IMG/VR virus record: IMGVR_UViG_2556921669_000003
Coordinates: 1-64,000 of that record
Reading direction: 5' to 3' (one strand)
Source: a virus
Taxonomy: Duplodnaviria; Heunggongvirae; Uroviricota; Caudoviricetes
DNA: 64,000 bases
Shown here: positions 1,403-34,190 of the stretch, in pieces
How positions within the stretch are numbered: position 1 is the stretch's first letter
Layout of the letters: each line of letters begins with the position of its first letter
The notes under the pieces: generated by a model
Seen by the model: the letters and a program-made list of their open reading frames with translations, nothing else
What the model was told of the DNA's origin: nothing
Databases searched by the model: none
Position numbers and translations under genes: made by a program

Positions 1403-1635
1403 GCGGCCCTCCGCCCGTGATTGTCATTGCTTGCGGCCAGTTGCCGGGCAACACGCCGCAGGGCGCCGGCGATGACCTTGTTGCGGTGCGGCCAGCGGTC
1501 TTCGTGCCAATCGGCAACCAGCCCGAGCACTTCGGCGTTGTTCGTCGATGGCGACAGGTTCGCGATGACCTCGAGGCCGTCGCCGGTGTAGGTGCTGGCT
1601 TGGGGCTGGCGGATGGTGGCTTTGGGTTTTCTCAT
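1399..1635 (-). CDS. hypothetical protein (78 aa) ending ...ASNDNHGRRAA
   Basis: Start ATG preceded by CCACCCACCACATGAGGAGAAAACG, the window-wide CACCAC-SD module; C-terminal SNDN..AA motif. Confidence 0.5.
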   Translation of the reverse strand: MRKPKATIRQPQASTYTGDGLEVIANLSPSTNNAEVLGLVADWHEDRWPHRNKVIAGALRRVARQLAASNDNHGRRAA

Positions 1636-1674
1636 CGTTTTCTCCTCATGTGGTGGGTGGTACAAAAGTGCCGA

Positions 1675-1827
1675 TCAGTAGACGGGCTCGTCGCCATTTC
1701 GGGCTCGGAACACGAACTTCGCCCGAATGAACGGCCTTGGTTCGAAGGGCGGGACAACCAGTGGTCCGGGCTTGGACATGATCTTGTCGATCGTGTCGAA
1801 CAGGGCCTCTATGATGGGTGGCATCAT
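1675..1827 (-). CDS. small hypothetical protein (50 aa)
   Basis: ATGA overlap with the stop of the SPFH gene; MMPPIIEALFDTIDK... Confidence 0.3.
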   Translation of the reverse strand: MMPPIIEALFDTIDKIMSKPGPLVVPPFEPRPFIRAKFVFRARNGDEPVY

Positions 1828-2735
1828 TTCAGACCGCCCAGATTCAGCATCGGCACTGAACCGTTCGGAAGCATGGTGTTCGGCAATTTGCCGTCCCATC
1901 GTTCGGCCTGCGTGAGATCGACGAGATTCGGGTTCTCTCGCAGGGCATCTCCCCGCGCCTTGATCGCCTTGGCGGCAGCTTGCCCCTTGATTTCGATCGC
2001 CTGCGCCTCTGCTTGCGCAGCGCGTTCGGTGGCGTAACCCTGGGCGTCCGCGATCGCCCGCTGGCTGTCAGCCTGAGCCTTCGCTTGCGTTACGGTGATT
2101 TCCGCCTGAACCTTTTCCCGCTCAGCATTTTGACGGAGCTTCTGAACCTCGACCTCGGCCTGCATCCGCTGCTCGATTGACTTCTCATAGGCGTCGGAGA
2201 AATCGATGTTCTCGACCTGCACCGAGGCGACCACTACCGGTCCCGCGACTGCACGCTTTATGGCGCTCGATACTTCTGCCGACAGTCGCGCCCGGTCCTG
2301 CACCGCCGTGATGGCATTGAACTTGCCGAAGACAATCTCGACCTGCTCATTGACCTGACGATCAACAACACGGGTCTGCAGCGCGTCCAGCGAGCCGTAT
2401 TCCGAGTACACTCGTGAAACCAAGTCGGCGGGAACGCTGTAGGTCAGCGAGAGCCGCAACGTAGCGGTCTGCTGGTCCTTTGAATAGGCCTGCACACCGT
2501 CGTAGCTAATCGTGTGTTGCTGCACGGAGATCCGGCGAACGGCTTCGAGCCAGGGCAGTTTGAAGCCAAGTCCCGGTTGTGCGACGCCGATAACCGCGCC
2601 GTTGCGGAGCAGTACGCCGCGTTCGCCTTGATCGATGGTGTACCAGCTACCAAAAGCAACCGGCAAGCCGATGAAAGCGACGGCTACTCCGGTCAGCGCG
2701 AGTTTCAGAATTCTGGAATTGATGGGGTTCATCAT
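1824..2735 (-). CDS. SPFH/band-7 (prohibitin/HflC-HflK-like) membrane protein
   Basis: N-terminal TM segment, then the conserved band-7 core and a long Ala/Glu/Gln-rich coiled coil; start preceded by TAACCACCACCACACTGAGGAGACA. Confidence 0.75.
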   Translation of the reverse strand: MMNPINSRILKLALTGVAVAFIGLPVAFGSWYTIDQGERGVLLRNGAVIGVAQPGLGFKLPWLEAVRRISVQQHTISYDGVQAYSKDQQTATLRLSLTYSVPADLVSRVYSEYGSLDALQTRVVDRQVNEQVEIVFGKFNAITAVQDRARLSAEVSSAIKRAVAGPVVVASVQVENIDFSDAYEKSIEQRMQAEVEVQKLRQNAEREKVQAEITVTQAKAQADSQRAIADAQGYATERAAQAEAQAIEIKGQAAAKAIKARGDALRENPNLVDLTQAERWDGKLPNTMLPNGSVPMLNLGGLK

Positions 2736-2757
2736 TGTCTCCTCAGTGTGGTGGTGG

Positions 2758-3611: not shown

Positions 3612-4289
3612 TCAATAAGCGCCGGCCTGCACGATCAGATGGACGCTCACGACGTCGTCCTTGTCGAATTCAATGGGGATCGGCGGATTGTACTGCTCGA
3701 GCGTCAGGCGCGCGCCTTTCCAGCCTGTGAACTTCTTCACGAACCCGCGCGGTGGTTCGTCTTCACTCCGTGCGCGAATCTGCACAACGACGTGGTCGCC
3801 GTGCCTGACCGGCTTCGTTGGGTGGACGTATGCGATCTCGCGAGGGTAGTAGCGCGGCACCATCGATTCGCCGTCCAGAAAAACGGCATACGCGCCCGGA
3901 ACGTTGATAAGTGAGGGGATGCAGGGCACCCAATCCAGGATCTGGCCGTTGAAAATGTACTCGCCGTCCGCGCCGCCAACGGCTTCACCAAGTACCGGCA
4001 TCATCTTCGGAAGAGCGTTTGTCGGCACCTGGTTCAATGGCACGATGGTGGCGTTCGGGGCGGGGGAGGGGCGCCTGCCTTTTCGCTCGTCGATGAGTCG
4101 CTTCATTTCATCTTCCGGTATCTGCAGGGCGGCCGCCACCTCTCGCCAGATATGCGACCCTTTCACCTTGCCGGTCATGAAATTGTTGATGTTTTGCTGA
4201 TCCGTGCCGACGGCGCGCGCCAGCTCTGACTCGTTGCCGCCAAACGCGGCGTTGAGGCGTTCCCGGAGTCGCTCTTCGAGGCTGTCCAC
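3612..4289 (-). CDS. CI/LexA-like repressor: N-terminal XRE HTH plus C-terminal S24 peptidase domain with intact Ser (GESM) and Lys
   Basis: HTH in the first 60 aa; C-terminal ...FLDGESMVP...VKKFTGW... matches the LexA/CI autoproteolysis module. Confidence 0.8.
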   Translation of the reverse strand: MDSLEERLRERLNAAFGGNESELARAVGTDQQNINNFMTGKVKGSHIWREVAAALQIPEDEMKRLIDERKGRRPSPAPNATIVPLNQVPTNALPKMMPVLGEAVGGADGEYIFNGQILDWVPCIPSLINVPGAYAVFLDGESMVPRYYPREIAYVHPTKPVRHGDHVVVQIRARSEDEPPRGFVKKFTGWKGARLTLEQYNPPIPIEFDKDDVVSVHLIVQAGAY

Positions 4290-5247: not shown

Positions 5248-5874
5248 CTATGTGGCCACAGCGGTGAGTCGCTCCGCAAGGACGATGACGTGGATCGCCT
5301 CGATCGGCACGTCGAACTCGACAGCCCGTCCGTATTGCGCCAGCCGCGCCTTGTCGCCGTCGATGGAGACGAGGCGGCCAATCCACGCCACGCCCTTGCC
5401 GCTATGCACGAAGACCTCGTTTCCGGGCTTGGGGAAGGGGCGGCTGTCCACCCAGACCCTACAGCCGTAGAGGAGGGCGGGCTCCATGACGTTCGTGTCG
5501 ACGCGGACCACGTAGCGCCCATACGGCACGTAATTCGGACCGTAGCCCGACATGGCCGGTTCGAACTTGAACTTGCCTTCCTTGCGGTCAGCGATCTTTC
5601 CCTTCTCCTGCACCGTATCAAGCGTCGACATGTCGAGGGCGGTTCCGGCGCGAGCTTTCGCTTCCTCAGCCAGGCCATCCACTTCGGCACGCGGCACGCC
5701 CAGAAAGTCAGCCAGCCCATCTCGAACATCGTCGCGTGGTATCGTCCCGCGCTTCCAGCTATTGTAGGTCTGCTGCATCCATCCGTACTTCTCGCCGACG
5801 GCTCTATCCGTGAGCTTCAGCGCCTTCTGTCGGTCGGAAAGCATGAGGGCGAGGCGTGTTTTCTTCTTCACCAT
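5248..5874 (-). CDS. second CI-like repressor: XRE HTH plus S24-like domain lacking the nucleophile Ser (NVMEP in place of xSMxP)
   Basis: HTH MLSDRQKALKLTDRAVGEKYGWMQQTYNSWKRG; C-terminal LexA-fold alignment places Val at the catalytic Ser position. Start taken at MVKKK; the annotated TTG start lies inside the operator. Confidence 0.75.
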   Translation of the reverse strand: MVKKKTRLALMLSDRQKALKLTDRAVGEKYGWMQQTYNSWKRGTIPRDDVRDGLADFLGVPRAEVDGLAEEAKARAGTALDMSTLDTVQEKGKIADRKEGKFKFEPAMSGYGPNYVPYGRYVVRVDTNVMEPALLYGCRVWVDSRPFPKPGNEVFVHSGKGVAWIGRLVSIDGDKARLAQYGRAVEFDVPIEAIHVIVLAERLTAVAT

Positions 5875-5894
5875 GGAGGACTCGCAGAAAAAGC

Positions 5895-5923
5895 TTGACA
5901 AATTTGTAAAATGGTACTATAAA
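5895..5923 (+). promoter_or_regulatory. PR-like early promoter with operator: TTGACAAATTTGTAAAA, -10 TATAAA
   Basis: Consensus -35, 17-nt spacer and -10; the perfect palindrome ACAAATTTGT overlaps the -35; divergent from the repressor gene. Confidence 0.5.
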
Positions 5924-5992
5924 ATTCGACTGTCGGCAAGTCCACCAGACTCCGACCTGCGCGCAAGCGCACCACCACGCAGAGGAGAAACG

Positions 5993-6280
5993 ATGACGAT
6001 CATCACCAGCGATACGCTGGCGGATATGCGTGCTTGCCTGAATCGAGGCGAGACCATCGCAACCATCGCCAGACGATACGGCCTGAAAGACATGGCTGTC
6101 TACCAGCGTTTGCGCCGCGATCTCGGTGGGCCGCCCATTCCCGGCCCCGCAAACGACAACAACCCAGGCCGCGTGACCCGGATGACGCCGCACAACGGCG
6201 GCTGCTCGACGACGAGCGGCAAGATGCCCGTGACCCTGGTTCGCGTCCCGTCGGTTGATGGGGTGGCGGTGGCGGCATGA
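5993..6280 (+). CDS. small HTH DNA-binding protein (Cro-like early regulator), contains PANDN, ends ...VAVAA
   Basis: First gene after PR; GAGGAGAAACG SD; RGETIATIARRYGLKDMAVYQRLRR resembles an HTH. Confidence 0.55.
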   Translation: MTIITSDTLADMRACLNRGETIATIARRYGLKDMAVYQRLRRDLGGPPIPGPANDNNPGRVTRMTPHNGGCSTTSGKMPVTLVRVPSVDGVAVAA

Positions 6281-6579
6281 GCGACACCAGCAACACGACG
6301 CAGTGCGACTGCGACTACTTCGAGTTCGGCGACTGGGTTCGCTCTCGCCAAAATCCCAATCTCACCGGGCAGGTGATCGGCGAGCGAGGCTGGGGTGAGG
6401 AGTACGAAGTGCGCCTCGCCGACGGCCTCACCAAGACCTGGTGGAAAACCATTGAAATCGAGCACGACCCGGACGGCTCTCCGCCGGCCATGGAAGATGA
6501 CGACACGAACGTCGTCCGTGTGGATTTCACCAAACGGCGCGAACTGCGCGAGGATACGACAACGGGAGGGGCTGCGTGA
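6277..6579 (+). CDS. hypothetical protein (100 aa)
   Basis: ATGA overlap with the previous stop; acidic non-repetitive sequence. Confidence 0.5.
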   Translation: MSDTSNTTQCDCDYFEFGDWVRSRQNPNLTGQVIGERGWGEEYEVRLADGLTKTWWKTIEIEHDPDGSPPAMEDDDTNVVRVDFTKRRELREDTTTGGAA

Positions 6580-7940
6580 TGTACCAGAAGGGTCAGAATG
6601 TCAGAATGACGCGCGACTGCGATTGCGGCGGCTTCAAGAAAGGCGACGTGTTTATGCTGTCGAGAAGCCACAAGAGCGTCGCTTTCTTCGTTGACGCCGA
6701 CGGCGATGACCGTTGCCTCGAGCACAGCTTCGAACTCATCCCCGCCCTCATCATCGAACCAGGCAAGCACTACCGCACCCGCTCGGGCAAGCCGACGGGG
6801 CGTGTAACGGTTGGTGACACCGGCTTCGAAGCGGTCGTTGACGGGCGCGTGCGGATCTTCGACAAGGCCGGCGGCGCAGTTCATGGCGACGACGACATCG
6901 TCGAGGCGTGGGTGCCGAAGGTTGGGGAGCGGGTCGTAGAGGCCGAACCGAAGCAATACAACTTCCTCCGACACTGGTTCGACTACTGGCGGAGCGTCGA
7001 GGGCGTCCTGACGGACAACTCCTTCGTCGTCACAAAGGTGTGTGGTGCGACCGTTCATTACAGCAACCGTGTTGATGGGAACGGCCCCATAGCCGACATC
7101 GCTGACCTCGAACCGCTGCCCGTTGCCACGCAACCGGCAGCCCCGACCCTGAAAATCGAGGCGGGCCGCTACTACAAGACCCGCGATGGGCGGAAGGTTG
7201 GGCCAATGGTGCGAGCCGAAAACTGGCTGGCAGGATTCTATGATTCGGCGCGCCTAATCACTGGTCAGCGATGGGAAGGGGACGGATCCTTTATCGAGGG
7301 CCAAATCTCGAACCTCGACCTCGTCGCCGAATGGCAGGAAACCACCAACGTCGGCGCCCAGGTCGACACGCTGGCCGAGGAATACGGCTCGCCGCATCCC
7401 AGCAATGACAACGCGGCCAAGCCGAAGTTTAAGAAGGGCGATCGGATCAAGCTGGCGGCAGTCCACGAAATGGCGGGATATGGCCGCTTGGATGGCGAAA
7501 CAGGCACAGTGCTGGAAGATTCTTCTGTGCCCTACGTGAAGTGGGACAGGGATGGCGCGAAGCTCGCCATCTTGGAGAAGGAGGCGGACCTCATCGCCAC
7601 CACCCCGACCGTCACCACCTCCGCCATCGTCGCCCTCATCGAAAACGGCCAGCCCAAGCCTGCAGCCGTCCCGCACGTCCACGCTTCGGAAGCTGCCGCC
7701 ACCACGGAGGCGAACCGACTTGCCGGCGTTCACAAGGGCAAGCGGTTCGGCGTGTTCGTGCTGACCACGACAGCGGAAGAGGCGGCTCCGACCTACCGGC
7801 ACGAATGGCAGCGGCTGGCCGTTGCCGGCAAGAAAATCGACGCCATCCGAGAGCTTCGCGGCTTGACCGGGATGCAGTTGAAGCCGGCCAAGGATGTCGT
7901 CGAGCACTTCGTTGCCTACCCGTACGGGCAGGCCGCCTAA
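6576..7940 (+). CDS. hypothetical protein with a C-terminal ribosomal L7/L12-CTD-like domain
   Basis: C-terminal AGKKIDAIRELRGLTGMQLKPAKDVVE closely parallels the L7/L12 CTD core ([24 protein letters not shown]); internal repeated GxYYKTRxGxxVG motifs; contains SNDN. Confidence 0.6.
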   Translation: MMYQKGQNVRMTRDCDCGGFKKGDVFMLSRSHKSVAFFVDADGDDRCLEHSFELIPALIIEPGKHYRTRSGKPTGRVTVGDTGFEAVVDGRVRIFDKAGGAVHGDDDIVEAWVPKVGERVVEAEPKQYNFLRHWFDYWRSVEGVLTDNSFVVTKVCGATVHYSNRVDGNGPIADIADLEPLPVATQPAAPTLKIEAGRYYKTRDGRKVGPMVRAENWLAGFYDSARLITGQRWEGDGSFIEGQISNLDLVAEWQETTNVGAQVDTLAEEYGSPHPSNDNAAKPKFKKGDRIKLAAVHEMAGYGRLDGETGTVLEDSSVPYVKWDRDGAKLAILEKEADLIATTPTVTTSAIVALIENGQPKPAAVPHVHASEAAATTEANRLAGVHKGKRFGVFVLTTTAEEAAPTYRHEWQRLAVAGKKIDAIRELRGLTGMQLKPAKDVVEHFVAYPYGQAA

Positions 7941-8613: not shown

Positions 8614-9435
8614 TTGATGTCAGTCTTTGACAGACTTGAACAAAAGCGAAAGCCGAAAGCTCCGGTCCTTGCCGTCTACGGTACGCCGGGCGTCGGCAAG
8701 ACCAGCCTTGCCTCTGAATTTCCAGACCCGCTTTACCTCTATGTCAACGGCGAGGAGCCGCCGGATGGCGTCGACATGCCGTCGGATGAAATCACGTCGT
8801 TCAACGGCCTGCTCGATACCTTCGGCGACCTCCTGACGGAAAAGCACCCTTTCCGCACCGTCATCATCGACAGCCTGGACAAGGTCGAGCCGATGGTCTG
8901 GGAGGAAACGTGCGCCCGGAACGGCTGGGACAACATCGACAGCAATGACAAGGGGGCTCCCACGGCGTTCGGCAAGGGCTTCCTCGGGGCCGACGTCGAA
9001 TGGCGAGAATACCACAACGCCGTCAGCGCACTTTCGCGCGCCGGAATCTACGTGATCCAGATCCTGCACAGCCAGACTAAGGCGTTCAAGGACCCCCTCG
9101 TGGATGACTACGACCGATATCGTCCCAAACTTCAGACCCGAGCTCTCGATCTCGTCATCGAGAACTGCAAGGCGCTGCTGTTCCTGAACCGCCGCACGTC
9201 CGTCAAGCAGGTGGACAAGGGCTTCGGCAAGAAGGAAGCAAAGCCGGAAGGCATGTCGGGATCCGAGCGCATCATCCACACCGACGAGCGCGCCGGGTTC
9301 CTCGCGAAGAATCGGCTGAACGGCGCACCGGCGACGATCCCGTACAAGCCGGGGCAGGGGTTCGCCGAGTTGTCGAAGTACTTCGCGGCCAACGACAACG
9401 TGGCTGACGAGCATGAAGAGCGGGAGGCGGCGTGA
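8614..9435 (+). CDS. Sak4-like / AAA_24 family ssDNA-annealing ATPase
   Basis: Walker A GTPGVGKTS near the N-terminus; size and position (next to an SSB-like gene) typical of Sak4; C-terminus ...FAANDNVADEHEEREAA. Confidence 0.7.
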   Translation: MMSVFDRLEQKRKPKAPVLAVYGTPGVGKTSLASEFPDPLYLYVNGEEPPDGVDMPSDEITSFNGLLDTFGDLLTEKHPFRTVIIDSLDKVEPMVWEETCARNGWDNIDSNDKGAPTAFGKGFLGADVEWREYHNAVSALSRAGIYVIQILHSQTKAFKDPLVDDYDRYRPKLQTRALDLVIENCKALLFLNRRTSVKQVDKGFGKKEAKPEGMSGSERIIHTDERAGFLAKNRLNGAPATIPYKPGQGFAELSKYFAANDNVADEHEEREAA

Positions 9436-9852: not shown

Positions 9853-10425
9853 ATGGCAAATCTCGGCCAGCGATTTAACGCTCAGGACCACGATACCGAG
9901 CAGAGAGACTATGCCGAACTTCCGAACGGCATCTACCAGATGGAAATCGAGGCGTCCGACGTCGGCCCGACCAAGGCGGGCAGCGGCATGATTCTCAAGA
10001 CGACGAACGTCGTCATCGCACCGGACGCGTACAAGGGTCGCAAGCTCTTCAACAACTATAACCTCGAGAACCCGAATCCGCAGGCCCAGGAAATCGGCCA
10101 GCGCCAATTCGCCAGCCTTTGCCGCGCCATCGGCGTGGACAGCGTGGAAGACAGCGAGGACTTGCACTTCAAGTCCTTCACCGTGAAGGTCAGCCTCGGC
10201 AAGGCGCAGAACGGGTATCCGGCCCGCGCCGAAATCAAGTCCTACTACTTCCCCGACCAGGGCAACGTGCCGGAACCGGCGATTGATGCCGTCCAGCCGG
10301 CCGCACAGCCCACCGCCGCCAACGACAACCGGCGCCCCGCTGCCAACGACAACCACCAGCAACAATCGGCCGCCCGTCCGGCTGCGGCAGCAACCGGCGC
10401 GCGTCCGTGGGGGCAGAAGAAGTAA
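9853..10425 (+). CDS. putative phage ssDNA-binding protein; low-complexity C-terminal tail with two AANDN copies
   Basis: Position after the Sak4-like gene; acidic/aromatic core, then ...TAANDNRRPAANDNHQQQ... Confidence 0.4.
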   Translation: MANLGQRFNAQDHDTEQRDYAELPNGIYQMEIEASDVGPTKAGSGMILKTTNVVIAPDAYKGRKLFNNYNLENPNPQAQEIGQRQFASLCRAIGVDSVEDSEDLHFKSFTVKVSLGKAQNGYPARAEIKSYYFPDQGNVPEPAIDAVQPAAQPTAANDNRRPAANDNHQQQSAARPAAAATGARPWGQKK

Positions 10426-10610
10426 TGTTCGGTCTGATCGAAAAAGCGGTCCGAGTTACCGCCAACGTCGTCACGCTTCCCGTCTCGCTGGCGGCTGACG
10501 CTGTCACGTTGGGCGGCGAACTCAACGACCGGCGCCAGAGCTACACCGGCTCGAAGCTGAAGCGCATTGGCCGGGACGCTTCCGACATCGTCGAGGACGT
10601 TGCGGGCTAA
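10425..10610 (+). CDS. hypothetical protein (61 aa)
   Basis: TAATG overlap with the upstream stop. Confidence 0.35.
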   Translation: MFGLIEKAVRVTANVVTLPVSLAADAVTLGGELNDRRQSYTGSKLKRIGRDASDIVEDVAG

Positions 10611-10671: not shown

Positions 10672-11106
10672 ATGATGAAACGACTTATCCTGGCCGCCAT
10701 GCTTGCGGCCGTCACGGTCCTCGCCGGCTGCACCGACGACGACGCCAAGATCGCGTCTGCGAACATCACCAAGGCGGCCGACAACTTCGAGATCAATCGC
10801 CGCGTCGTGTTCTACAACGGCATCACCAACAGCTACATCCTGTCGGTCGAAGGACTTTGCTCCATGGACCTGAACAGCGCCGGCACGGCGTTCAACGTGA
10901 TCTGCAAAGTTGGTCCCAGCCAGTACAAGCGCCATACGCTCGTGCTTTCCGACAACACCAGCGCGTTCGTCGAGCAGTTGGAGCCGGCCAAGGCTAGCGC
11001 CTACCACTACCGCGTGACCTTCAAGCCGCAGGCCATCCTGCCCGACATCGACTTCCGGGGCGATGCTGGTGAGCTGACCACCAACAGCAGCGAGGCGAAC
11101 CAGTGA
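10672..11106 (+). CDS. lipoprotein (signal peptide plus lipobox LAGC), possible superinfection-exclusion moron
   Basis: MMKRLILAAMLAAVTVLAGCTDD...; start preceded by a hairpin with a CACCAC loop and AGAGGAGAGA. Confidence 0.6.
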   Translation: MMKRLILAAMLAAVTVLAGCTDDDAKIASANITKAADNFEINRRVVFYNGITNSYILSVEGLCSMDLNSAGTAFNVICKVGPSQYKRHTLVLSDNTSAFVEQLEPAKASAYHYRVTFKPQAILPDIDFRGDAGELTTNSSEANQ

Positions 11107-11930: not shown

Positions 11931-12006
11931 ATCAACCTGCCGCATGGCCACCACCATGCGGCAATCACCACACCACGGTAGCTACCCGCTACGAGAGGAG
12001 ACACCC

Positions 12007-16020: not shown

Positions 16021-16181
16021 CCCGCCCAGTCGATGTTATCGGAGCCGACGCTGTTGCGGCGCTGCGCGCGGCCGGTTGGATCGTTGTCCGCGAGGACGCC
16101 ATCCGACTCGCGCAGGCGCACGCCCGGAGTGAGCTTAAAGATAGCCGCCAGCATTGTGAAGATCGGCCGGGGCAGGTGTGA
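16017..16181 (+). CDS. small hypothetical protein (54 aa)
   Basis: ATGA overlap with the sigma gene stop. Confidence 0.3.
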   Translation: MTRPVDVIGADAVAALRAAGWIVVREDAIRLAQAHARSELKDSRQHCEDRPGQV

Positions 16182-24994: not shown

Positions 24995-25480
24995 ATGACC
25001 TACACAATCAAAGCTATCCCAACGACCTACGCTGGCGTCAATTTCCGCTCCCGCCTCGAAGCGCGATGGGCAGCTTTCTTCGATCTGTGCGGATGGAAGT
25101 GGGACTATGAGCCATTAGACTTGGAAGGATGGGCGCCGGATTTCTTGCTCAGGACGGTCCTCGGCCCAGTGCTGGTAGAGGTGAAGCCCTATGACGTTGT
25201 GGCCAAACTGGACGAGGAATTGGCGCGCGGCCCGTCGGTCGGTCGAATTTCGGAATACGATAAGGCGGCCAATCACGGAAAGCATCACCAGGTTCTTTAT
25301 CTGGGATTGTCTCCACTTTCCGACGGATATCCTGTCGGCTTCCCCGCAATCCCGCCTCTAAACGCACCATATCCCTATGCCGTGATGCTAGACGCCATAA
25401 CAGTCAACCGGCCTGAACACCTTTGGGCGGAGGCGGGAAATATCGTGCAATGGCATCCATCAAGGAGGGCCGCAGCCTAA
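24995..25480 (+). CDS. PD-(D/E)xK restriction-endonuclease-fold nuclease (phage-associated)
   Basis: APDFLL ... LVEVK (D...ExK) arrangement; ends ...SRRAAA. Confidence 0.45.
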   Translation: MTYTIKAIPTTYAGVNFRSRLEARWAAFFDLCGWKWDYEPLDLEGWAPDFLLRTVLGPVLVEVKPYDVVAKLDEELARGPSVGRISEYDKAANHGKHHQVLYLGLSPLSDGYPVGFPAIPPLNAPYPYAVMLDAITVNRPEHLWAEAGNIVQWHPSRRAAA

Positions 25481-27603
25481 TGGCAAAGCTGAACTTCAAG
25501 ATTCCCGCGTGGGAAAAGTCCGCAGTCGAAGTCGCCCGCTCATACATTGCAGCGGGCATAGCCGTTTTTCCGTGCCGAGAGCAGGACGGCGAGGGGATTG
25601 ACCACTCGACGGGCGAGATCGTCGACTTTCCTGAAAAGTCGCCGTTGACGGCGCACGGGCTCAAGGACGCGACAACGTCCCGCCGCATCATCGATATCTG
25701 GTTTGGCGAGAGACACCCTACGGCCGCCATCGGCGTTCCTACCGGCGAAAAACTCGGCGGGTGGGTCCTCGATATCGATAGACATGGCGATAGGGACGGC
25801 CATGCGTGGCTGGCCGAGATGGAGACAAGGCACGGCCGGCTGCCTGCCACCGCTCGCGCCACAACGGCGAACGGCGGCACGCACATATTCTTCGCCCATC
25901 ATCCTGGCGTCCGTAACCGTGCCGCGCTAGCTCCCGGCGTAGACACTCGAGGAGATGGCGGATATGTCCTGGCGCCCGGTAGCGTCATGGCTGACGGACG
26001 CCGATACGCTTGGATCGATCATGACGGGTCCGATATGCCCGCGTTCGAGCCCGCGCCGGAATGGCTGCTTGAACTCGTCCTGCCGAAGGCTCCCGAGCCG
26101 GCCGCCACAACCAAGCGCGAATACACCTATCAGCCGGAGCCCAACACCGGTGCTGAGCGGTATGCGTCTCGCGCGTTCGAAATGGAACTGGACCGGCTTG
26201 CATCCGCCCCCAAGGGGCAGCGCGGGCAACAACTGTTCTCCAGCGCTTGCTCTATCGGGGAGTTGGTGGCAGCCAACCTAGTGTCCCGGTCGGAAGCCGA
26301 AGCGGGCCTCTATGATGCCGCGGCGTCAAACGGTCTGGTTGCTACCGATGGTGAGCGGCAATGCCGGGACAAGATCCGACGTGGCTTGGACAAAACAGCC
26401 AATTCACCGCGGCAGATACCGGAGCGGCAGCACGACAATGACAACACGACGCCCATACCGTCGGACACCATTGATGCGCTGGTTGCGAAGGCGAGGGCAA
26501 AAGTGGCGGGAGGAGTGCCAGATGATGAGCCGGACGAACCCGTCGCCCAACCCAAGAAGCGCGGGCGCTTCGAACTAACGTGGTTCGACGAAATCGAGGA
26601 AGGCAAGCCGAAGGAGACAATCCTCAAGGGGTGGTTGGGCGTAGGGGAGTTCACGACCATTTCCGGTCTGCCCGGCACCGGCAAGAGCGTCGTGACGACG
26701 GACCTTGCTTGCCATATAGCTGCCGGTATGGATTGGCACGGGCTGCCAGTGCGGCAGGGCCTGGTCGTCTACGTGGCCGCTGAGCGCAAGAAGCTCACGG
26801 AGCGGCGCATGATGGCGTTCCGCTCTTATCATGGCGTCAAGGACGTGCCGCTGCTCGTGGTTGGCGGTATGCTGGACTTCACCCGTGATGAGAAGGACGC
26901 CGAAGCAATCATCGGTGTCATCCGGGAGGCGGAAACCATCACCGGCCACAAGTGCGTCTGGGTGATCATCGACACGCTTACTCGCGTGTTTGGTGCCGGC
27001 GACCAAAACGCCAGCAAAGACATGGTGAAGTTCGTGCGGTCATGCGACCTCATTCTCACCGAAACCGGGTCGCACGTTACAGCCATCCACCACAGCGCCT
27101 GGAGCGGTGAGCGAGGCAAGGGCGCGATCGATCTCGACGGTGCGGTGGATGCGAGCTTCATGGTCAAAAAGGATGGCAACCGACACAAGCTGGTCTGCGA
27201 CGGAACGAACGACGGGGAGGAGGGTGATGTACTGTCCTTCACCATGAAGTCGGTCGAAGTAGGTCGCGGTGAAGACGGCGAGCCGACAACGGCGCCCGTC
27301 GTGGTGAAGGCTGGAGAAGAGCAGACACTGACCAGCGGCTCACTCAAGGGGTACAAGGGTGACGTATTGGCTGCTCTGCGTGTGGCTATCACGGCCGATG
27401 GTGTGGAGCCTGACGGCCATGCCTTCCCCGATGATATTCTCGTTGTCGATGAGCCTACGTGGAAAAAGCACTTCTTCGCCGGGCGGGATATGGACATCGC
27501 CACGGTAGCGGCCACGGCGAAGAAGCAGTTCCAACGGGCACCGGCAGACCTCGTGAAGGCCGGCCATGTCAATCAAATCGGCCAATGGTATTGGCCTGCT
27601 TAG
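25480..27603 (+). CDS. replication protein: bifunctional primase-polymerase (PrimPol) N-terminal domain fused to an AAA_25/RepA-like ATPase
   Basis: N-terminus IAVFPC...LTAHGLKDAT...WVLDIDRHGD (prim-pol); Walker A GLPGTGKSV in the C-terminal half; followed by iterons. Confidence 0.8.
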   Translation: MAKLNFKIPAWEKSAVEVARSYIAAGIAVFPCREQDGEGIDHSTGEIVDFPEKSPLTAHGLKDATTSRRIIDIWFGERHPTAAIGVPTGEKLGGWVLDIDRHGDRDGHAWLAEMETRHGRLPATARATTANGGTHIFFAHHPGVRNRAALAPGVDTRGDGGYVLAPGSVMADGRRYAWIDHDGSDMPAFEPAPEWLLELVLPKAPEPAATTKREYTYQPEPNTGAERYASRAFEMELDRLASAPKGQRGQQLFSSACSIGELVAANLVSRSEAEAGLYDAAASNGLVATDGERQCRDKIRRGLDKTANSPRQIPERQHDNDNTTPIPSDTIDALVAKARAKVAGGVPDDEPDEPVAQPKKRGRFELTWFDEIEEGKPKETILKGWLGVGEFTTISGLPGTGKSVVTTDLACHIAAGMDWHGLPVRQGLVVYVAAERKKLTERRMMAFRSYHGVKDVPLLVVGGMLDFTRDEKDAEAIIGVIREAETITGHKCVWVIIDTLTRVFGAGDQNASKDMVKFVRSCDLILTETGSHVTAIHHSAWSGERGKGAIDLDGAVDASFMVKKDGNRHKLVCDGTNDGEEGDVLSFTMKSVEVGRGEDGEPTTAPVVVKAGEEQTLTSGSLKGYKGDVLAALRVAITADGVEPDGHAFPDDILVVDEPTWKKHFFAGRDMDIATVAATAKKQFQRAPADLVKAGHVNQIGQWYWPA

Positions 27604-27954: not shown

Positions 27955-28461
27955 ATGGCCCGCTCCACCACCAAGCAAACCCAAACCACCCGCATCAACG
28001 GCAAGCGTGTCCGTATCGTCACGACGGACGGCAAGGTCGCCATCCAGGCAGCCCCGCCGCTCGAAAGCGATCTACAGGCTGCACAAGTCGTCGCGCTGCG
28101 CCGCATGCCGGAACACCGTGATCGGTTCGTCATAGCCGGCGACATGAACGCGGAACGCCGTGGGCCGAAGGCGCGAGCGATTGCCCTCGCGACCGGTATG
28201 GCTTCCGGCGAGCCGGACCTGCGCGTCTATGCGGAACGCGGCAGGCTGTTGCTGATTGAGAACAAGGTCGGCAATCCGGCGACTGGGGGTGGCGGCAAGC
28301 TCAGCCCGGCGCAGAAGCTGCGGCACGACGATCTGGGGCGGCTCGGCTACCGTGTCGAGGTGGTTCGGTCCATGACACCCGAAGACGCCGCACAGCGGGC
28401 CGTGAGCCTGGTGCGCGAATGGCTGGCGGCCAATGACAACCACCGCGAGGAAAAACCTTGA
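27955..28461 (+). CDS. VRR-NUC domain nuclease
   Basis: ...LLLIENKVGNPATGGGGKLSPAQK... fits the VRR-NUC core; C-terminus ...WLAANDNHREEKP. Confidence 0.55.
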   Translation: MARSTTKQTQTTRINGKRVRIVTTDGKVAIQAAPPLESDLQAAQVVALRRMPEHRDRFVIAGDMNAERRGPKARAIALATGMASGEPDLRVYAERGRLLLIENKVGNPATGGGGKLSPAQKLRHDDLGRLGYRVEVVRSMTPEDAAQRAVSLVREWLAANDNHREEKP

Positions 28462-28529: not shown

Positions 28530-29150
28530 TTGATGACGAGACGGGATTTGTATTTCGCCGTTGAGGGCGGCAGGACGCTGGAAATTGCCAGGAAGCATGT
28601 GGCGGAGCGTGCTGCGGTGGAGGAAGTCAATCGCGCGCTGGCCAAAGAGCTCGGGGCCGAGCGGTACGCGGTCGATTTCTTAACGGGCGTACTGTGCGGC
28701 GTCATTTTCCCCGGCAAGCCGCACGCCGATTTCAAGAAGCCAAACAAGAATGGAGTTTCCAGTCCTCGCGCGAGAACCGCGTGGGATGCGCGTCTCGCCT
28801 CGATGAAGGGATATGACAGGCGCGGCTTTTCGCTTGCAAAGGCCCTAGGCGTGCCGACGGACATCTCATACCGCAAGGGTGACGCAGTGCGCGGCGGCTC
28901 GGCCATTGCTGGCGGCTTCTCGTCCGGTGTTGGCTTCCTCTACCTCTCCGAAGACGGCCCGTTTGCACTCTACGTCCCGGATGTAGCGTATGTTGTCGCT
29001 GACTATGAGGATCGGGGCTACACCGTCTGCGACGAGTGCAAGAACTTCAAGCCTGAGTTCGACGGTGCGCGCCCAATCCTGAAGGAAGAGTGGGAGTTGG
29101 TCGTCGCTCGTCACAAGTTGGCTGAGGCTGAGAAGAAGGTGGCGGCATAA
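28530..29150 (+). CDS. hypothetical protein (206 aa), ends ...EKKVAA
   Basis: CACCACGATAGAGGAGAGA initiation module. Confidence 0.5.
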   Translation: MMTRRDLYFAVEGGRTLEIARKHVAERAAVEEVNRALAKELGAERYAVDFLTGVLCGVIFPGKPHADFKKPNKNGVSSPRARTAWDARLASMKGYDRRGFSLAKALGVPTDISYRKGDAVRGGSAIAGGFSSGVGFLYLSEDGPFALYVPDVAYVVADYEDRGYTVCDECKNFKPEFDGARPILKEEWELVVARHKLAEAEKKVAA

Positions 29151-30049
29151 TGGTACGTCATTCTTCCCTCGCAGATCAGCTCACTGCGCTTCGCTCTTAC
29201 GTCACCGAGCCGGACCATGAGCCGGAGCCCGTTCAAACCAACTGGACCACGGTGCCGGGCAACGACAACGACCCTGAAGACGTTGAGGACCTACACGTCG
29301 AGCGCCGCTGGCGCATGAAGCCTTCCGTCGAAGAGATCATGCGGCAAGTCGCGACGGGCGATATTGAGTGTAACGACGCGGGGCAGGTGGTGCGCATAGG
29401 CAAACTCCACTTCAGCGACGGCACGCAGACCGAGGCGGGCTTTAAACTGGTCATGGGCGAGCCAGTGGCTGCACGCATCAGGATGCCGGTCGGCGCGATG
29501 CTCGGAACGAAGGACGCAGAAGAGGGCCAACTTGGCGGCGAGGTGGATCCCCAACACATCACGGCCAGCAACGAGTACTTCGCCGCGGCGTTCGATGTTA
29601 AGCCCCGCGCCTACAAGTCGGGTGGTCGGAGAAAGCGGGGACGGAATATCAGCCACGCTGAGGCGAAGGCGATGCTTGCCGAGGCTTATGCCAACACGGA
29701 CATGTCCAAGGTTACGTTCACGCGATACCCCGACGGCCTGCCGGCCGGCTCGCCGAAAGTGTCTGAGAATTTCCTCGGGCTGCAGAAGACCACATGCGGC
29801 GATAGGGGCTCGACCATGTGGCAGGACATTGTGTCGGCGAAGGCGGACAGGAAGGAATGGTTCGACGCCGTCGACGCCTTGAAGGCAAAAGACCGCGAAG
29901 TGCTGGAAGCGGCGAAGACGGCGAGGACCATGAGGGCAGTTGGCGTTTCCATGGGGTACACAGGCAAGACGGCCGAGCGGCGAGGGAAGCGCGCATTGAT
30001 CGCCGCGAATGACAACCTCATGGCGGCAATTGACGCATACGCGGCCTGA
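29150..30049 (+). CDS. hypothetical protein (299 aa) with N-terminal PGNDN and C-terminal ...IAANDNLMAAIDAYAA
   Basis: TAATG overlap; strongly SsrA-like C-terminal tail. Confidence 0.5.
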   Translation: MVRHSSLADQLTALRSYVTEPDHEPEPVQTNWTTVPGNDNDPEDVEDLHVERRWRMKPSVEEIMRQVATGDIECNDAGQVVRIGKLHFSDGTQTEAGFKLVMGEPVAARIRMPVGAMLGTKDAEEGQLGGEVDPQHITASNEYFAAAFDVKPRAYKSGGRRKRGRNISHAEAKAMLAEAYANTDMSKVTFTRYPDGLPAGSPKVSENFLGLQKTTCGDRGSTMWQDIVSAKADRKEWFDAVDALKAKDREVLEAAKTARTMRAVGVSMGYTGKTAERRGKRALIAANDNLMAAIDAYAA

Positions 30050-30775: not shown

Positions 30776-30851
30776 TGCGGGCTAGAGAAACGGTATCTCG
30801 TCGGGCTCATATCCCGAAGACACCCGGTTCGACTCCGGGGCTCCGCAACCA
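30776..30851 (+). tRNA. tRNA-like element, anticodon CAU (Met; initiator-like GGG/CCC anticodon stem), acceptor stem with one bulged U, encoded CCA
   Basis: Hand-folded. D arm GAGA-aacggta-TCTC, anticodon arm TCGGG-ctCATat-CCCGA, variable loop 5 nt, T arm CCCGG-TTCGACT-CCGGG, acceptor UGCGGGC/GC(U)CCGCA, then A-CCA. Coordinates ±1. Confidence 0.4.
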
Positions 30852-31486: not shown

Positions 31487-31538
31487 AGCATTAAATGAAG
31501 AAATTTTCGTAATATTGCGATTTTCTTCAAAAAAGGCG

Positions 31539-31567
31539 TTGACATGGGTTCGGATATGGGGTATGAT
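31539..31567 (+). promoter_or_regulatory. consensus-like sigma70 promoter ahead of the packaging/head operon (TTGACA, 17 nt, TATGAT)
   Basis: Located in an AT-rich patch between the gpZ-like gene and terS. Confidence 0.35.
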
Positions 31568-31687
31568 GTGATGGGGCACTGCATGCCGGACGCCCCCACC
31601 TTAGGGACCGTACCCCGTTTCTGACCCCCTGCGGGTACGCAGCCGCCGATTGTCTGCGATTATAGATTTTGAAAAGGGGGTAACACC

Positions 31688-32311
31688 TTGTTACCTGTTG
31701 CGATGAATCAGGCCGGCTTTGCGGCCCATCGGCGCGTGAGCCGAAAGACCGTCACCGGCTGGAAACAGAGGGGGTTGCTCGTTCTCCTCCCTGATGGCCA
31801 GGTGGATGTTGCCGCTTCGGATCGCGCACTCGAGCGTCACGGCATTTCGTTACCCAAGGTAACAGCCCTAGAACCGGACGACGACCAGGTAACGCCCGAA
31901 GCCTCCCTTGAGGAGGAAGCCCGTCTCCTGGTGTCCGCAGACGGCGAAGAGCTACTTTCGAAGGCGGAAGCCGAGCGTCTAAAAGAGAACTACGCGGCTC
32001 GCTTGAAGCAGCTCGAATATGACCGTGAGGTCGGGCTCGTCGCGGAGATCGACGATGTCGTCGCCGCGGTCGCGAGCGAATACGCAATTGTCCGTAACAG
32101 ACTGCTGGGCATCGGCTCCAAGGTGGCGCCGTCCGTCGCCGTGCTGAATTCGGCGGAGGAGATCAAGGCCCTTATCGACAAAGAGGTGGCGCGCGCTCTG
32201 GGGGCTTTGACGGTGGATGTCCATGGAGAACAGGACTTCGGCAAGGTCCGAGAGTCGATACAGAAGCGGTTCGGACCAGCTTCTGAAGAGGCTGCGCCTA
32301 GCCCGCAGTGA
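31688..32311 (+). CDS. terS: terminase small subunit (N-terminal HTH DNA-binding domain plus oligomerisation domain)
   Basis: Immediately upstream of and overlapping terL; N-terminus NQAGFAAHRRVSRKTVTGWKQRGLL; preceded by the inverted repeat GGTAACACCTTGTTACC. Confidence 0.6.
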   Translation: MLPVAMNQAGFAAHRRVSRKTVTGWKQRGLLVLLPDGQVDVAASDRALERHGISLPKVTALEPDDDQVTPEASLEEEARLLVSADGEELLSKAEAERLKENYAARLKQLEYDREVGLVAEIDDVVAAVASEYAIVRNRLLGIGSKVAPSVAVLNSAEEIKALIDKEVARALGALTVDVHGEQDFGKVRESIQKRFGPASEEAAPSPQ

Positions 32312-34190
32312 GGCTCTCAAAGCCCCGCCGATACTGACTCTCAGCCAGTGGGCGAATGAATACGCCTATCTTTCGCGCGAGAACAGCGCTGATACGGGCA
32401 AATACGAGTCGTTCGGCTACCAGAATGGCATGATGGATGCGGTCACGGACCCGTCTGTCTCGCGGATTACGGTCATGAAGAGTGCCCGCGTCGGGTACAC
32501 GAAAATGATTGACCACATGGTTGGATATCACATCCACCAGGATCCGGCGCCCATGATCATCGTTCAGCCCACCGAGGCTGACGCGCTCGACTACAGCGAC
32601 CGTGAAATCGCGCCGATGCTGCGTGATACGCCGGTTCTGGCCGAGACAGCGGGGGATCTGAGCAAGCGATCGTCAAAGCAGACGCTGGCCGTTCGCTCAT
32701 TTCGCAACGGCGCGTCGATCAAGTTCATCGGTGCGAACAGCCCGAACGGCTTCCGCCGCGTCACGGCCCGCATCGTCGCGTTCGACGAGGTGGACGGCTA
32801 CCCGGAACAGGGCGCCGGCGATGACGGCGACCAGATCTCGCTCGGCGAAAAGCGCACCGAGACGTTTTGGAACAGCAAGATCATTCTTGGGTCGACGCCT
32901 CTCGTTAAGGGGGTTAGTCGCATCGAAAAATCGTGGGAAGCAAGCGACCAGCGCCGCTACCATGTCCCGTGTCCCCATTGTGGTGTCAAACAGACGCTGA
33001 AGTGGGAGAACTTCAAGTGGGACAAGGCCGAGAACGGCAAGCACCTTCCGGAAACGGCTCACTTCCGCTGTGAGGCGGAGGGGTGCGGCAAGCGGATCGA
33101 GGAACACGATAAGAAGTTCATGATCGACAATGGCGAGTGGGTGGCTGAGAAGTCATTCAACGGTCATGCCGGTTTTCACATCTGGACGGCTTACAGCCTC
33201 TTCCCGAAGGCCGCCTGGCGGTTCCTCGCGGCGGAATGGCTCGAAGTCTATAAGGACGAGAACCGGAAGAAGTCGTTCATCAACCTGACGCTGGGGCTTC
33301 CGCATCAGGAAGTCGTCAACGTAGCCGATCCGGACGTTCTGAAGCAGCGCTGTGAGCCTTATAACTGGGAAACGCTACCTTCCGACGTGCAGTTCATCAC
33401 AGCCGGAGCGGACACACACCCTGGGCGTCTCGAAGTGACGCTTGTTGGGTGGGGTAAGGACGAAGAGGCGTGGGTAGCGCGGCACGAGGTGCTGGACGGC
33501 GATGCCTCGAACCTGCAGGTGTGGCGAGAACTGGACGAGCTGCTGGCGACACCGTGCGAAACTGACGATGGCCGGAAGCTGTTGGTGCAGGCTGTCTGCA
33601 TAGACAGCGGCGGCCACAACTCCGAAATGGTCCACAAATACGCTCGTGAGCGCAAACGGCGCCGGATTTATTCTATTATCGGCCGCGGCAACCCGAATCC
33701 AAAGGCTCCGCGCATGATCTGGCCCAAAACGGCCAGCCGAACGAAGAATTCCGGCGACAAGCCCTATGTGATCGGTGTCGATACGGCAAAGGACGAGCTT
33801 TCGTCCCGTTTGGCGATCGTCCCGCATGAAGAGCATCCGACGCCTCGCTCCATCCACTTTCCGGACATGCAGTACAGCCTGAGCGCCGATTACTTCGACC
33901 AATTGACGGCAGAACACGCTGTTACGCGGAAGAAGGGCAGTCTTACGACCCGAAAATGGGAAAAGAAGACTGTCGGCGCGCGAAACGAGGCCTGGGACTG
34001 TCTGGTTTACGCACTGGCGGCTCGCATGTCTCTTCCGAAGAAGCTCAGCAAGGCTCCGAAGGCGCCGCGTGCTGGGGGCGCGCCCCGTCCAGAGCCGGCA
34101 AACGACAATCGCGAGCCGGAAGCGCGCACAGAGAAACCGGTTGAACCCGCTAAAAAGCGAGAACGCAGGCGGTTTGGAGCCTATAAATGA
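32217..34190 (+). CDS. terL: terminase large subunit (lambda gpA family)
   Basis: Long collinear similarity to lambda A (e.g. VMKSARVGYTKMI vs VVKSARVGYSKML); C-terminal tail contains EPANDN. Confidence 0.9.
   Translation: MSMENRTSARSESRYRSGSDQLLKRLRLARSEALKAPPILTLSQWANEYAYLSRENSADTGKYESFGYQNGMMDAVTDPSVSRITVMKSARVGYTKMIDHMVGYHIHQDPAPMIIVQPTEADALDYSDREIAPMLRDTPVLAETAGDLSKRSSKQTLAVRSFRNGASIKFIGANSPNGFRRVTARIVAFDEVDGYPEQGAGDDGDQISLGEKRTETFWNSKIILGSTPLVKGVSRIEKSWEASDQRRYHVPCPHCGVKQTLKWENFKWDKAENGKHLPETAHFRCEAEGCGKRIEEHDKKFMIDNGEWVAEKSFNGHAGFHIWTAYSLFPKAAWRFLAAEWLEVYKDENRKKSFINLTLGLPHQEVVNVADPDVLKQRCEPYNWETLPSDVQFITAGADTHPGRLEVTLVGWGKDEEAWVARHEVLDGDASNLQVWRELDELLATPCETDDGRKLLVQAVCIDSGGHNSEMVHKYARERKRRRIYSIIGRGNPNPKAPRMIWPKTASRTKNSGDKPYVIGVDTAKDELSSRLAIVPHEEHPTPRSIHFPDMQYSLSADYFDQLTAEHAVTRKKGSLTTRKWEKKTVGARNEAWDCLVYALAARMSLPKKLSKAPKAPRAGGAPRPEPANDNREPEARTEKPVEPAKKRERRRFGAYK

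Follow-up and report, generated by a model that had tools for sequence, protein, structure and literature searches.

Peptide motifs resembling the host ssrA tag in early proteins of a Shinella prophage and its 16-3-like relatives

A C-terminal Ala-Ala carboxylate (AA-COOH) is the C-motif-1 of ClpX, and it reportedly defines a class of ClpX substrates. Natural ClpX substrates with built-in terminal degrons include MuA, in which the degron is at the C-terminus, and lambda O, in which it is at the N-terminus. Escherichia coli RseA(1-108) is bipartite: SspB binds at an internal site, and a VAA stands far from it at the C-terminus. In alphaproteobacteria the adaptor SspB-alpha is said to bind the ANDN part of the ssrA tag, which is added by trans-translation from transfer-messenger RNA (tmRNA). 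Anti-sigma factors of Mycobacterium tuberculosis carry ssrA-like degrons (bioRxiv 10.1101/491043). The ssrA tag of Caulobacter is AANDNFAEEFAVAA; when it was genetically encoded, proteolysis was too rapid for complementation unless sspB was deleted, and deletion of sspB slows decay (PMC9393093). The tag of Agrobacterium tumefaciens is listed as ANDNNAKEYALAA (PMC12493166, Table 1). This report concerns a 64,000-nucleotide stretch of a caudoviricete genome (IMG/VR record IMGVR_UViG_2556921669_000003, positions 1 to 64,000; hereafter the window), in which the tripeptide Asn-Asp-Asn (NDN), mostly as ANDN, recurs in early proteins, and in which many proteins end in Ala-Ala. With about an even chance of being right, we propose that (A/P)ANDN and the Ala-Ala ends are peptide mimicry of the host ssrA tag, plugged into SspB-alpha and ClpXP.

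The window is a prophage of Shinella sp. DD12 (Rhizobiaceae). The 216-residue protein encoded at 20783..21433 is matched exactly on AYLZ02000109.1 (196.7 kb) of assembly GCA_000496935.2. Gene order and protein similarity place the prophage with the Sinorhizobium temperate phage 16-3 and the Rhizobium/Sinorhizobium phages RHph_X2_25, RHph_TM3_3_14B and NV1.1.1.

The NDN motif in the window

A six-frame scan found NDN 18 times. Sixteen copies, in 14 proteins, are in the frame of a gene (1420-1428 on the minus strand, then 6152, 7404, 9391, 10321, 10345, 11769, 16526, 18650, 21401, 23969, 26437, 28432, 29261, 30008 and 34101), and the remaining two (22594 and 59016, both on the minus strand) are in non-coding frames. 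An earlier note on this DNA had listed the same 16 copies in 14 proteins, and their frames and coordinates are borne out. Two of its labels are slightly inexact: the copies that it called PANDN, at 6149..6160 and 34098..34109, cover ANDN only, the Pro codon lying 3 nt upstream. Two crude in-house callers were used for the genes; the first relies on third-position GC, the second takes the longest open reading frames (ORFs). Counts vary slightly between them (e.g., NDN 14 vs 16), and the conclusions are unchanged.

At the composition found, f(N) = 0.030 and f(D) = 0.062, the earlier estimate of one NDN per 20,000 residues is right. For the early proteome this amounts to 0.49 expected copies vs 16 observed, and 20,000 within-protein shuffles gave a mean of 0.54 and a maximum of 5. 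In an unbiased k-mer scan of the same proteins NDN (p = 3.5e-19), ANDN (11 vs 0.056 expected) and AANDN (8 vs 0.006) were the top 3-, 4- and 5-mers, the next unrelated k-mers reaching only ~2e-6 (KHGG, among 4-mers) and ~1e-4. The structural genes from 34.2 to 64 kb have no NDN.

Both AAC and AAT serve as Asn codons, and third codon positions vary. A DNA-level signal, AAYGAYAAY as a protein-binding or methylation site, was considered and rejected, since such a signal would be blind to frame and strand, yet the coding frame holds 16 of the 18 copies (p = 4e-11). The motif is selected on the peptide level, as the earlier note had suggested from the reading frames and the codon variation.

Eleven of the 16 copies lie at most 35 residues from the C-terminus, and all are outside those Pfam domain envelopes that could be drawn. 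Five of the 14 proteins have complete tails of the form (A/S)NDN, 4–9 residues, and Ala-Ala followed by a stop codon, with spacers between NDN and Ala-Ala of 4, 5, 6, 8 and 9 residues. The shortest spacer is in a small gene at 1399..1665 on the minus strand, with ASNDN at 1420..1434 and the end ASNDNHGRRAA. The Sak4-like AAA_24 ATPase (8614..9435) ends in AANDNVADEHEEREAA (9385..9432), its AANDN at residue 258, past a Pfam domain spanning 17-235 of 273. The protein of family phrog_4657 (20783..21433) ends in AANDNEEARVAA (21395..21430), the nearest look-alike of a real tag, (A)ANDNYAEARLAA. The N6/N4 DNA methylase (22700..24004) ends in AANDNDLFSAAAA (23963..24001), with AANDN at residue 422 and the Pfam domain at 30-393 of 434; this tail also holds a DLF resembling a clamp motif (NDNDLF). 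The phrog_36072 protein (29150..30049) ends in AANDNLMAAIDAYAA (30002..30046), where AANDN stands in the conserved, probably helical context G[KR]R.L[IVK]AANDN[LF] and so may belong to a helix instead of a free tail; the protein has a further copy, GNDN (29258..29269), near its N-terminus at residue 37. The tails AANDNEEARVAA, AANDNLMAAIDAYAA, AANDNDLFSAAAA and AANDNVADEHEEREAA are as they had been quoted earlier.

Other carriers end differently. The helicase (16949..18727) has AANDN in its tail AANDNVPAAANENHSKLEWAMDDSIPF (18644..18724), and the DUF669 protein (9853..10425), which resembles single-stranded DNA-binding protein (SSB), has two AANDN copies 8 residues apart (10315..10353; residues 155 and 163, with the Pfam domain at 17-131 of 190) and ends in RPWGQKK. 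In the primase-polymerase (PrimPol; 25423..27603) HDNDN (26431..26445) is at residue 339, in the linker between the Prim-Pol (38-214) and AAA_25 (382-562) domains, and relatives have NDN in the matching relative position. The VRR-NUC nuclease (27811/27955..28461) ends in AANDNHREEKP (28426..28458), with AANDN at residue 206 and the Pfam domain at 122-188 of 216. The lambda-type large terminase (32217..34190) has PANDN (34095..34109) at residue 627, 29 residues before its end and past the part that can be aligned with terminases (1-602). None of these five has an Ala-Ala end.

Other early proteins hold the remaining copies. PANDN (6146..6160) is in ORF 5810..6280, a small early protein with a conserved GGCSTTSG motif, whose relatives have NDN in the matching relative place and end in Ala-Ala. 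SNDN (7401..7412) is inside the 454-residue early protein encoded at 6576..7940, which ends in GQAA; its place is kept in relatives, ~170-180 residues from the end. ENDN (16523..16534) is 10 residues before the end of the small protein encoded at 16178..16558 (HENDNGPMWEVA). The ANDN at 11766..11777 (IANDND), internal in a Gad2-like/nucleotidyltransferase-like protein (11103..11930), may be a chance copy.

Ala-Ala ends and the likeness to native tags

Nineteen of the 83 window proteins (23%) end in Ala-Ala, vs 1.6% expected from composition, and every other terminal dipeptide is found at most two times. The genes end at 1399 and 3248 on the minus strand, and at 6579, 7940, 9435, 15136, 16020, 19244, 19741, 20568, 20786, 21433, 24004, 25480, 29150, 30049, 35857, 38469 and 43928. 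Through the terminase the proportion is 16 of 49 genes (33%), vs 3 of 34 (9%) later. This excess, which the earlier note did not contain, is 5–7-fold and affects the same phage lineage and gene class as the motif. Across the lineage 35–43% of early proteins of at least 150 residues end in Ala-Ala, as do 23 of 150 AAA_24 representatives.

Many of these ends coincide with overlapping start codons (GCAGCATGA, GCGGCGTGA; GCA GCA TGA, GCG GCG TGA). An origin purely from such stop/start overlaps was ruled out with 250 kb of Sinorhizobium meliloti pSymB, which represents a host-like background from a genus related to Shinella. With the same gene caller, genes of the same junction type in pSymB have 4.8% Ala-Ala ends, and pSymB overall 4.7%. 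Phage-lineage genes without an overlapping start have 13.8%, vs 4% in host-like genes. The ends use all four Ala codons in every combination. The excess without overlap, the host-like rate at the same junctions and the variety of codons show that Ala-Ala ends are selected as peptide. The excess is possibly a ClpX C-degron signature of early phage proteins. A raw association between NDN and Ala-Ala ends (45% vs 15%), due mostly to gene class and size, vanished after control for early-operon membership and length and was discarded as evidence.

The two halves recall the native tag. One IMG/VR contig could encode ANDNYAEARLAA: ARAGORN finds a permuted tmRNA with exactly that tag, and Rfam alpha_tmRNA scores 297 bits. 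This tmRNA gene is complete, at 10183..10522 on the minus strand of viral contig L029, and its presence is consistent with a prophage integrated beside ssrA. A tagged protein would end in A-ANDNYAEARLAA; the window protein encoded at 20783..21433 ends in AANDN-EEARVAA. The likeness to the head of the alphaproteobacterial SsrA tag, which the earlier note had pointed out, holds, (A)ANDN being identical in Caulobacter, A. tumefaciens and the IMG/VR alpha-tmRNA, and the match appears to include the extra Ala that charged tmRNA puts before ANDN. Its remark that several proteins end in tag-like sequences is upheld by the complete look-alikes among the window tails. At the DNA level the AANDNEEARVAA tail and the real tag differ at almost every synonymous site (GCC AAC GAC AAC ... 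vs GCG AAT GAC AAT ...), so the likeness is peptide-level convergence and capture of ssrA DNA is ruled out. Nor are the tails products of trans-translation; each is translated in frame from its phage gene and closes at an ordinary stop codon.

These observations bear on the view that the features have no peptide function and arise as by-products of DNA signals, gene-junction overlaps (GCAGCATGA, for example), captured ssrA DNA or low-complexity linker composition. The many Ala-Ala ends at overlapping starts speak for it, and the tails are rich in Ala and Pro. It is nevertheless highly improbable, given the coding frame of 16 of the 18 NDN copies, the varied Asn and Ala codons, the Ala-Ala excess without overlap, the lack of homology between tail DNA and tmRNA DNA, and the shuffles, which never gave more than 5 copies. 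Moreover, of 120 helicase tails, in which the other residues are free to vary, 111 keep NDN.

The phrog_4657 family illustrates how such tails vary. Its 120 homologues share a core that ends in W[AG]IxQYD and continues into an unalignable tail of 6–30 residues. The tail ends in Ala-Ala in 55 of the 120 and contains NDN in 11, in varied contexts (AANDNEEVRVAA, STANDNTPVAANAA, TAANDNKPNESIEKAA, AAANDNGKTKQAAA and others); 10 of these 11 also end in Ala-Ala (p = 0.0025). The pattern indicates that a complete tag-like tail has been gained repeatedly. In an AlphaFold2 model of the window protein, with a predicted local distance difference test (pLDDT) score of 93, the last helix runs through ANDN (pLDDT ~82) and no more than the final 5 residues score below 50; exposure of the tail is plausible at best. 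A Foldseek search of this model against the PDB gave no significant match.

Conservation in the 16-3-like lineage

The helicase was compared with its 120 closest homologues (66–92% identity), from prophages of Agrobacterium, Rhizobium, Sinorhizobium, Brucella/Ochrobactrum and Mesorhizobium and from phage RHph_X2_25. The 111 that keep NDN have at least one copy in the last 40 residues, and 96 of the 120 have two or more, typically as xANDNxPxxANDN. Some helicase homologues are ~930 residues long and have inserted intein/homing-endonuclease domains (PF05204, PF05203, PF14528), among them L006 8831..11641, L009 8834..11626, P0065, P0090 and P0096.

Ten related prophage loci, taken around the helicase, contain 80 NDN (3.7 expected) and 54 ANDN, with 23% Ala-Ala ends; being pooled over homologous loci, these counts are not independent events. 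Their sources are Brucella pituitosa, A. tumefaciens, Metarhizobium album, three species of Rhizobium, and assemblies assigned to Rhizobiaceae, Rhizobiales, Hyphomicrobiales and Alphaproteobacteria, three of them metagenome-assembled genomes. With a GC-independent ORF caller the window has 16 NDN, 11 ANDN and 25% Ala-Ala ends. The corresponding values are 14, 11 and 19% in RHph_X2_25, 14, 12 and 8% in 16-3, 14, 12 and 22% in RHph_TM3_3_14B, and 20, 13 and 20% in NV1.1.1. The four sequenced 16-3-like phages thus have 14–20 NDN vs ~1 expected.

In relatives the motif is also present in the Cas4 exonuclease (GAANDNEPGSTKA, SANDNTKQEQAA), in the sigma factor, either in its tail (SANDNCERRVAA) or at its N-terminus (beginning MTPANDNRPAEFD), and in HNH endonucleases. 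HK97-type portals of 16-3 (PPTANDNQEDEAEAA) and RHph_TM3_3_14B (EPPANDNKSDDEAQAA) carry it at their ends. The earlier statement that tail proteins are not affected holds within the window and fails for these relatives. The lambda-type terminase of the window and the unrelated portals have therefore gained the motif convergently, as non-homologous packaging proteins. A logo over 113 copies gives [A/P] in 81% at the first position, A in 68% at the second, then N-D-N, any residue and P in 40%, with the consensus [A/P]-A-N-D-N-x-P. The settings are variable tails, linkers and N-termini, and 50 of the 113 copies are in the last tenth of the protein. Across the lineage and phrog_4657 the spacer from NDN to a terminal Ala-Ala is mostly 5–6 residues (range 4–11), compared with 6–7 in native tags.

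Controls were taken from host-like DNA and from other phages. The 250 kb of pSymB has 1–2 NDN (2.3–2.6 expected), no ANDN and 3–5% Ala-Ala ends; host-like proteins are not enriched and the related phages are. Unrelated temperate alphaproteobacterial phages (Sinorhizobium phiLM21, Paracoccus Pyei1, Acetobacter phiAP1) have 0–2 ANDN and 2–10% Ala-Ala ends. Brucella phage Tb, Roseobacter phage CRP-902 and Pseudomonas phage PaMx25, which share the helicase/Sak4/DUF669 module and have other hosts or lifestyles, have no ANDN and 0–3% Ala-Ala ends. PaMx25 has no excess of ANDD/ANDE matching the gammaproteobacterial tag, and it has no Ala-Ala ends. The motif is not a general trait of alphaproteobacterial phages, since phiLM21, Pyei1, phiAP1, Tb and CRP-902 lack the enrichment. 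The controls show that the NDN motif and the Ala-Ala ends are traits of the 16-3-like lineage that travel together.

Confinement to one lineage keeps a lineage-specific phage hub in play. ANDN might be a docking motif for such a hub, namely the phage beta-clamp, the sigma factor or an uncharacterized early protein, or for a host factor other than SspB. Proteins of DNA transactions (helicase, SSB-like protein, annealase, nucleases, methylase, primase, sigma factor, terminase, portal) would then assemble on a common platform; the likeness to ssrA would be coincidental and the Ala-Ala ends a separate matter. This is possible, though less probable than mimicry of the tag. Like hub-binding motifs, ANDN is independent of position (N-termini, linkers, tails) and often duplicated. 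Nearly all carriers handle DNA, and among early proteins of similar size NDN and Ala-Ala ends are not significantly associated. All ANDN-positive genomes and loci have an orthologue of the phage beta-clamp and most have the sigma factor, and module-sharing phages without them lack ANDN; this phyletic link is, however, inseparable from shared ancestry. Pfam and PHROG scans of the ~50 early proteins revealed no SspB-like or other adaptor domain and no phage-encoded SspB- or Clp-like reader. An exact match of 4–5 residues to the one alpha-specific host tag is improbable by chance, as is the co-enrichment of AA-COOH, the other half of that tag, in the same lineage and gene class. Finally, the polar ANDN differs from every known clamp-binding motif. 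Its interpretation as such a motif (QL[SD]LF or QxxLxF) was judged unlikely, since it has no hydrophobic residue and canonical motifs stand separately beside it in the same tails (QPVADLFSAANDNHPAREAA, ANDNKPFQTDLFGEAA, MQPSLFAYAA, QTDLFGEAA and a sequence beginning QPVADLFSAANDN, with QPSLF, QTDLF and QPVADLF).

Other short motifs are found in the proteins of these phages. In relatives, clamp-binding motifs (QxDLF, QPSLF) are at the C-termini of methylases and nucleases. The window helicase ends in MDDSIPF (18704..18724), and 115 of the 120 homologues end in [IV]P[FYW], which recalls the DDDIPF tip of SSB in bacteria. A small DUF6511 protein downstream of the methylase ends in EAPF (24370..24381), and in the relatives seen its end is always (D/E)x[AVI]PF. 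Both ends look like mimicry of the SSB C-terminal interaction tip. The tip of the DUF669 protein, ARPWGQKK (10399..10422), is represented by C-terminal (R/K/N)PW(G/S)xK in every relative, apart from the ANDN copies, and is probably another docking motif.

The window has a leftward lysogeny region that includes an S24/CI-like repressor (3612..4289) and an XRE regulator (5248..5901). A rightward early operon extends over ~5.8-30 kb, and packaging and structural genes follow from 32.2 kb, with the lambda-type terminase, a portal and then tail genes. The products of the early operon include an L7/L12-like-domain protein, the Sak4-like AAA_24 ATPase, the DUF669 SSB-like protein, the Gad2-like protein, a phage beta-clamp, a Cas4-type exonuclease, a sigma-70-family factor, a YAcAr protein, the DEAD/ResIII helicase, a metallophosphatase, an exonuclease, the N6/N4 methylase, the DUF6511 protein, the Prim-Pol/AAA_25 primase and the VRR-NUC nuclease. 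The prophage encodes its own three-domain beta sliding clamp (11863..13059) but no DNA polymerase. The clamp and the sigma-70-family factor (15517..16020) are both conserved across the 16-3-like lineage.

Several neighboring genes deserve mention. On the lysogeny side an SPFH/Band-7 family protein (1824..2735, minus strand) is without counterpart in the compared relatives. The Gad2-like (PF26128)/nucleotidyltransferase-like gene at 11103..11930, between a Phage_VG64-like gene and the clamp, is without a homologue among the sequenced relatives used for comparison; the GC-based caller favored antisense ORFs there, and the gene may be an inserted accessory or defense gene. In the 454-residue protein encoded at 6576..7940, residues 417-444 resemble the C-terminal domain of ribosomal L7/L12, with a Pfam score slightly under the gathering cut-off. 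Its homologue in RHph_X2_25 is annotated likewise. The family is conserved in all relatives, where the early operon starts with it, and it has a match in Brucella phage Tb too. A tRNA-Met (CAT) at 30776..30851 lies between the replication module and the packaging genes. NV1.1.1 has a tRNA-Met in the matching relative place, directly after the phrog_36072 homologue, and phiLM21 has one ahead of the terminase.

A possible role in proteolysis and comparison with known systems

If the motif and the Ala-Ala ends mimic the tag, 16-3-like temperate rhizobiophages would have installed the motif repeatedly, by convergent peptide evolution, in early and some packaging proteins. ANDN would dock the host adaptor SspB-alpha, which would tether the cargo to ClpX. 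Where AA-COOH follows 4–11 residues after the motif, the result would be a complete genome-encoded ssrA-like degron with quick turnover by ClpXP; candidates are the Sak4-like ATPase, the methylase, the phrog_4657 and phrog_36072 proteins and the small gene 1399..1665 in the window, and the Cas4 exonuclease, sigma factor and portal in relatives. By copies with the head alone (helicase, DUF669 SSB-like protein, PrimPol, terminase, sigma factor N-termini) the adaptor would be recruited or occupied only. The likely net effect would be the erasure of leaky early expression in the lysogen; after induction a flood of tagged proteins would compete for limited SspB/ClpXP, and their levels would be coupled.

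Mimicry of the tag appears to be favored by the exact match to an alpha-specific host peptide with its preceding Ala, by the co-enrichment of both tag halves in the same lineage and gene class, by their native-like spacing, by positions outside Pfam envelopes, which may be accessible, by the habit of these phages of copying other short host motifs, such as the SSB tip and clamp motifs, and by the precedent of the genetically encoded native tag in Caulobacter.

A number of points weigh against it. Forty-three of the 113 copies (~40%) are more than 100 residues from the end, and several are N-terminal. Sigma factors carry the motif at the N-terminus and PrimPol carries it in the linker; the helicase and DUF669 tails that hold it end in DDxIPF and RPWGxK, respectively, and never in Ala-Ala. 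Among early proteins of at least 150 residues Ala-Ala ends are not significantly more frequent in NDN carriers (43%) than in others (35%). The residue after NDN is R, V or T, then often Pro (40%), compared with Y, F or N and then Ala in native tags. The absence of the motif from phages that infect the same hosts or related ones (phiLM21, Tb, Pyei1, CRP-902) is explained equally well by a reader and by an innovation peculiar to the lineage, and the pooled locus counts are not independent. The tags used for comparison, those of Caulobacter, A. tumefaciens and the IMG/VR contig, may differ from that of Shinella sp. DD12, whose tmRNA and sspB are outside the window. From sequence we infer that SspB-alpha binds the motif and that ClpXP degrades its carriers, and likewise what physiological role this would have.

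The number of copies raises another version of mimicry, in which abundant early proteins with ANDN and/or AA-COOH act as decoys that saturate SspB-alpha/ClpXP and so stabilize other phage or host clients, e.g., the cell-cycle regulator CtrA; host physiology would thereby be taken over, and turnover of the carriers would be beside the point. There are 12–20 copies per genome, and a third of early proteins end in Ala-Ala. The DUF669 SSB-like protein, expected to be abundant, always has 1–2 copies and never an Ala-Ala end. In E. coli ClpXP capacity is reportedly limiting and queueing is documented (PMC12013620), which is in line with titration. The decoy idea is nevertheless improbable as the principal explanation: it is reached wholly by inference; it needs the same SspB/ClpX binding as degradation does; and it leaves unexplained the complete tag look-alikes conserved on specific enzymes.

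A combination of degradation and titration may be imagined, though it is rather unlikely as a whole. The lineage would have put copies of both tag halves on much of its early proteome; fully tagged proteins would be erased when leaky; and induction would saturate SspB-alpha/ClpXP, a proteolytic-queue switch that would stabilize phage enzymes and freeze CtrA turnover and the cell cycle. The earlier note had offered degron, decoy and hub docking as possible meanings. Peptide-level selection and identity with the tag head have stood up, but with many copies far from any Ala-Ala end the picture of a pure C-terminal degron is too narrow, and sequence analysis does not choose among the three.

Built-in ClpX degrons and viral mimicry of short host motifs are already known. 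A literature search of incomplete coverage found no report of phage proteins with the adaptor-binding head of the tmRNA tag, or of its lineage-wide use. If mimicry of the tag is correct, this would be, to our knowledge, the first phage lineage in which the adaptor-binding part of the tag is systematically mimicked, a part so far taken as a mark of trans-translation products alone. The tails would provide a natural graded set of SspB-dependent degrons for Rhizobiales (complete, head-only, end-only, tandem heads), and early products would be under post-translational control in 16-3, a well-known model phage, as well as in numerous prophages of Agrobacterium, Rhizobium, Sinorhizobium, Brucella/Ochrobactrum and Mesorhizobium. 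Prophage induction might then perturb ClpXP-dependent regulation in the host. A queue switch would add a new layer of lysis-lysogeny control and of host takeover through short-peptide mimicry, and a hub would represent a new docking code organizing the phage replisome, recombination and packaging network. The prediction is directly testable in the tractable 16-3/S. meliloti system.

The nearest known system is the alphaproteobacterial ssrA tag read by SspB-alpha/ClpXP (AANDNFAEEFAVAA in Caulobacter, ANDNYAEARLAA and ANDNNAKEYALAA as the type of Rhizobiales), which the phage tails match in the (A)ANDN head, in the Ala-Ala-COOH end and in host clade. The spacing of head and end is similar, and the overall length of the complete tails is 11–16 residues. 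Unlike the tag, the tails are encoded in the gene rather than added by trans-translation and have a variable middle without an aromatic residue after NDN, and the head also stands alone, at N-termini, in linkers and as tandem copies. Genome-encoded degrons that resemble the ClpX-binding end of ssrA are known from MuA, lambda O and the anti-sigma factors of M. tuberculosis, and phage replication and recombination proteins are classic ClpXP clients. Those cases involve one protein each and the ClpX-binding end only, whereas in the 16-3-like lineage the adaptor-binding half would be copied too, in a dozen or more proteins per genome. RseA(1-108) offers a precedent for an adaptor element and a ClpX degron that are far apart, as would be needed for proteins with N-terminal or linker ANDN and AA-COOH, such as sigma factors; its SspB site is unrelated to the ssrA head, and the adaptor is a different orthologue. 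Hub-binding motifs, such as the beta-clamp QL[SD]LF, the PCNA PIP box and the SSB DDDIPF tip, and viral motif mimicry in general, also involve short sequences, often C-terminal, that are repeatedly gained and lost and are common to many DNA-handling proteins; they lie in disordered tails, as ANDN may, and 16-3-like phages carry clamp-type and SSB-tip-type motifs as well. In contrast to these, ANDN is polar and fits none of their consensus sequences, and its sole known match is the head of the ssrA tag.

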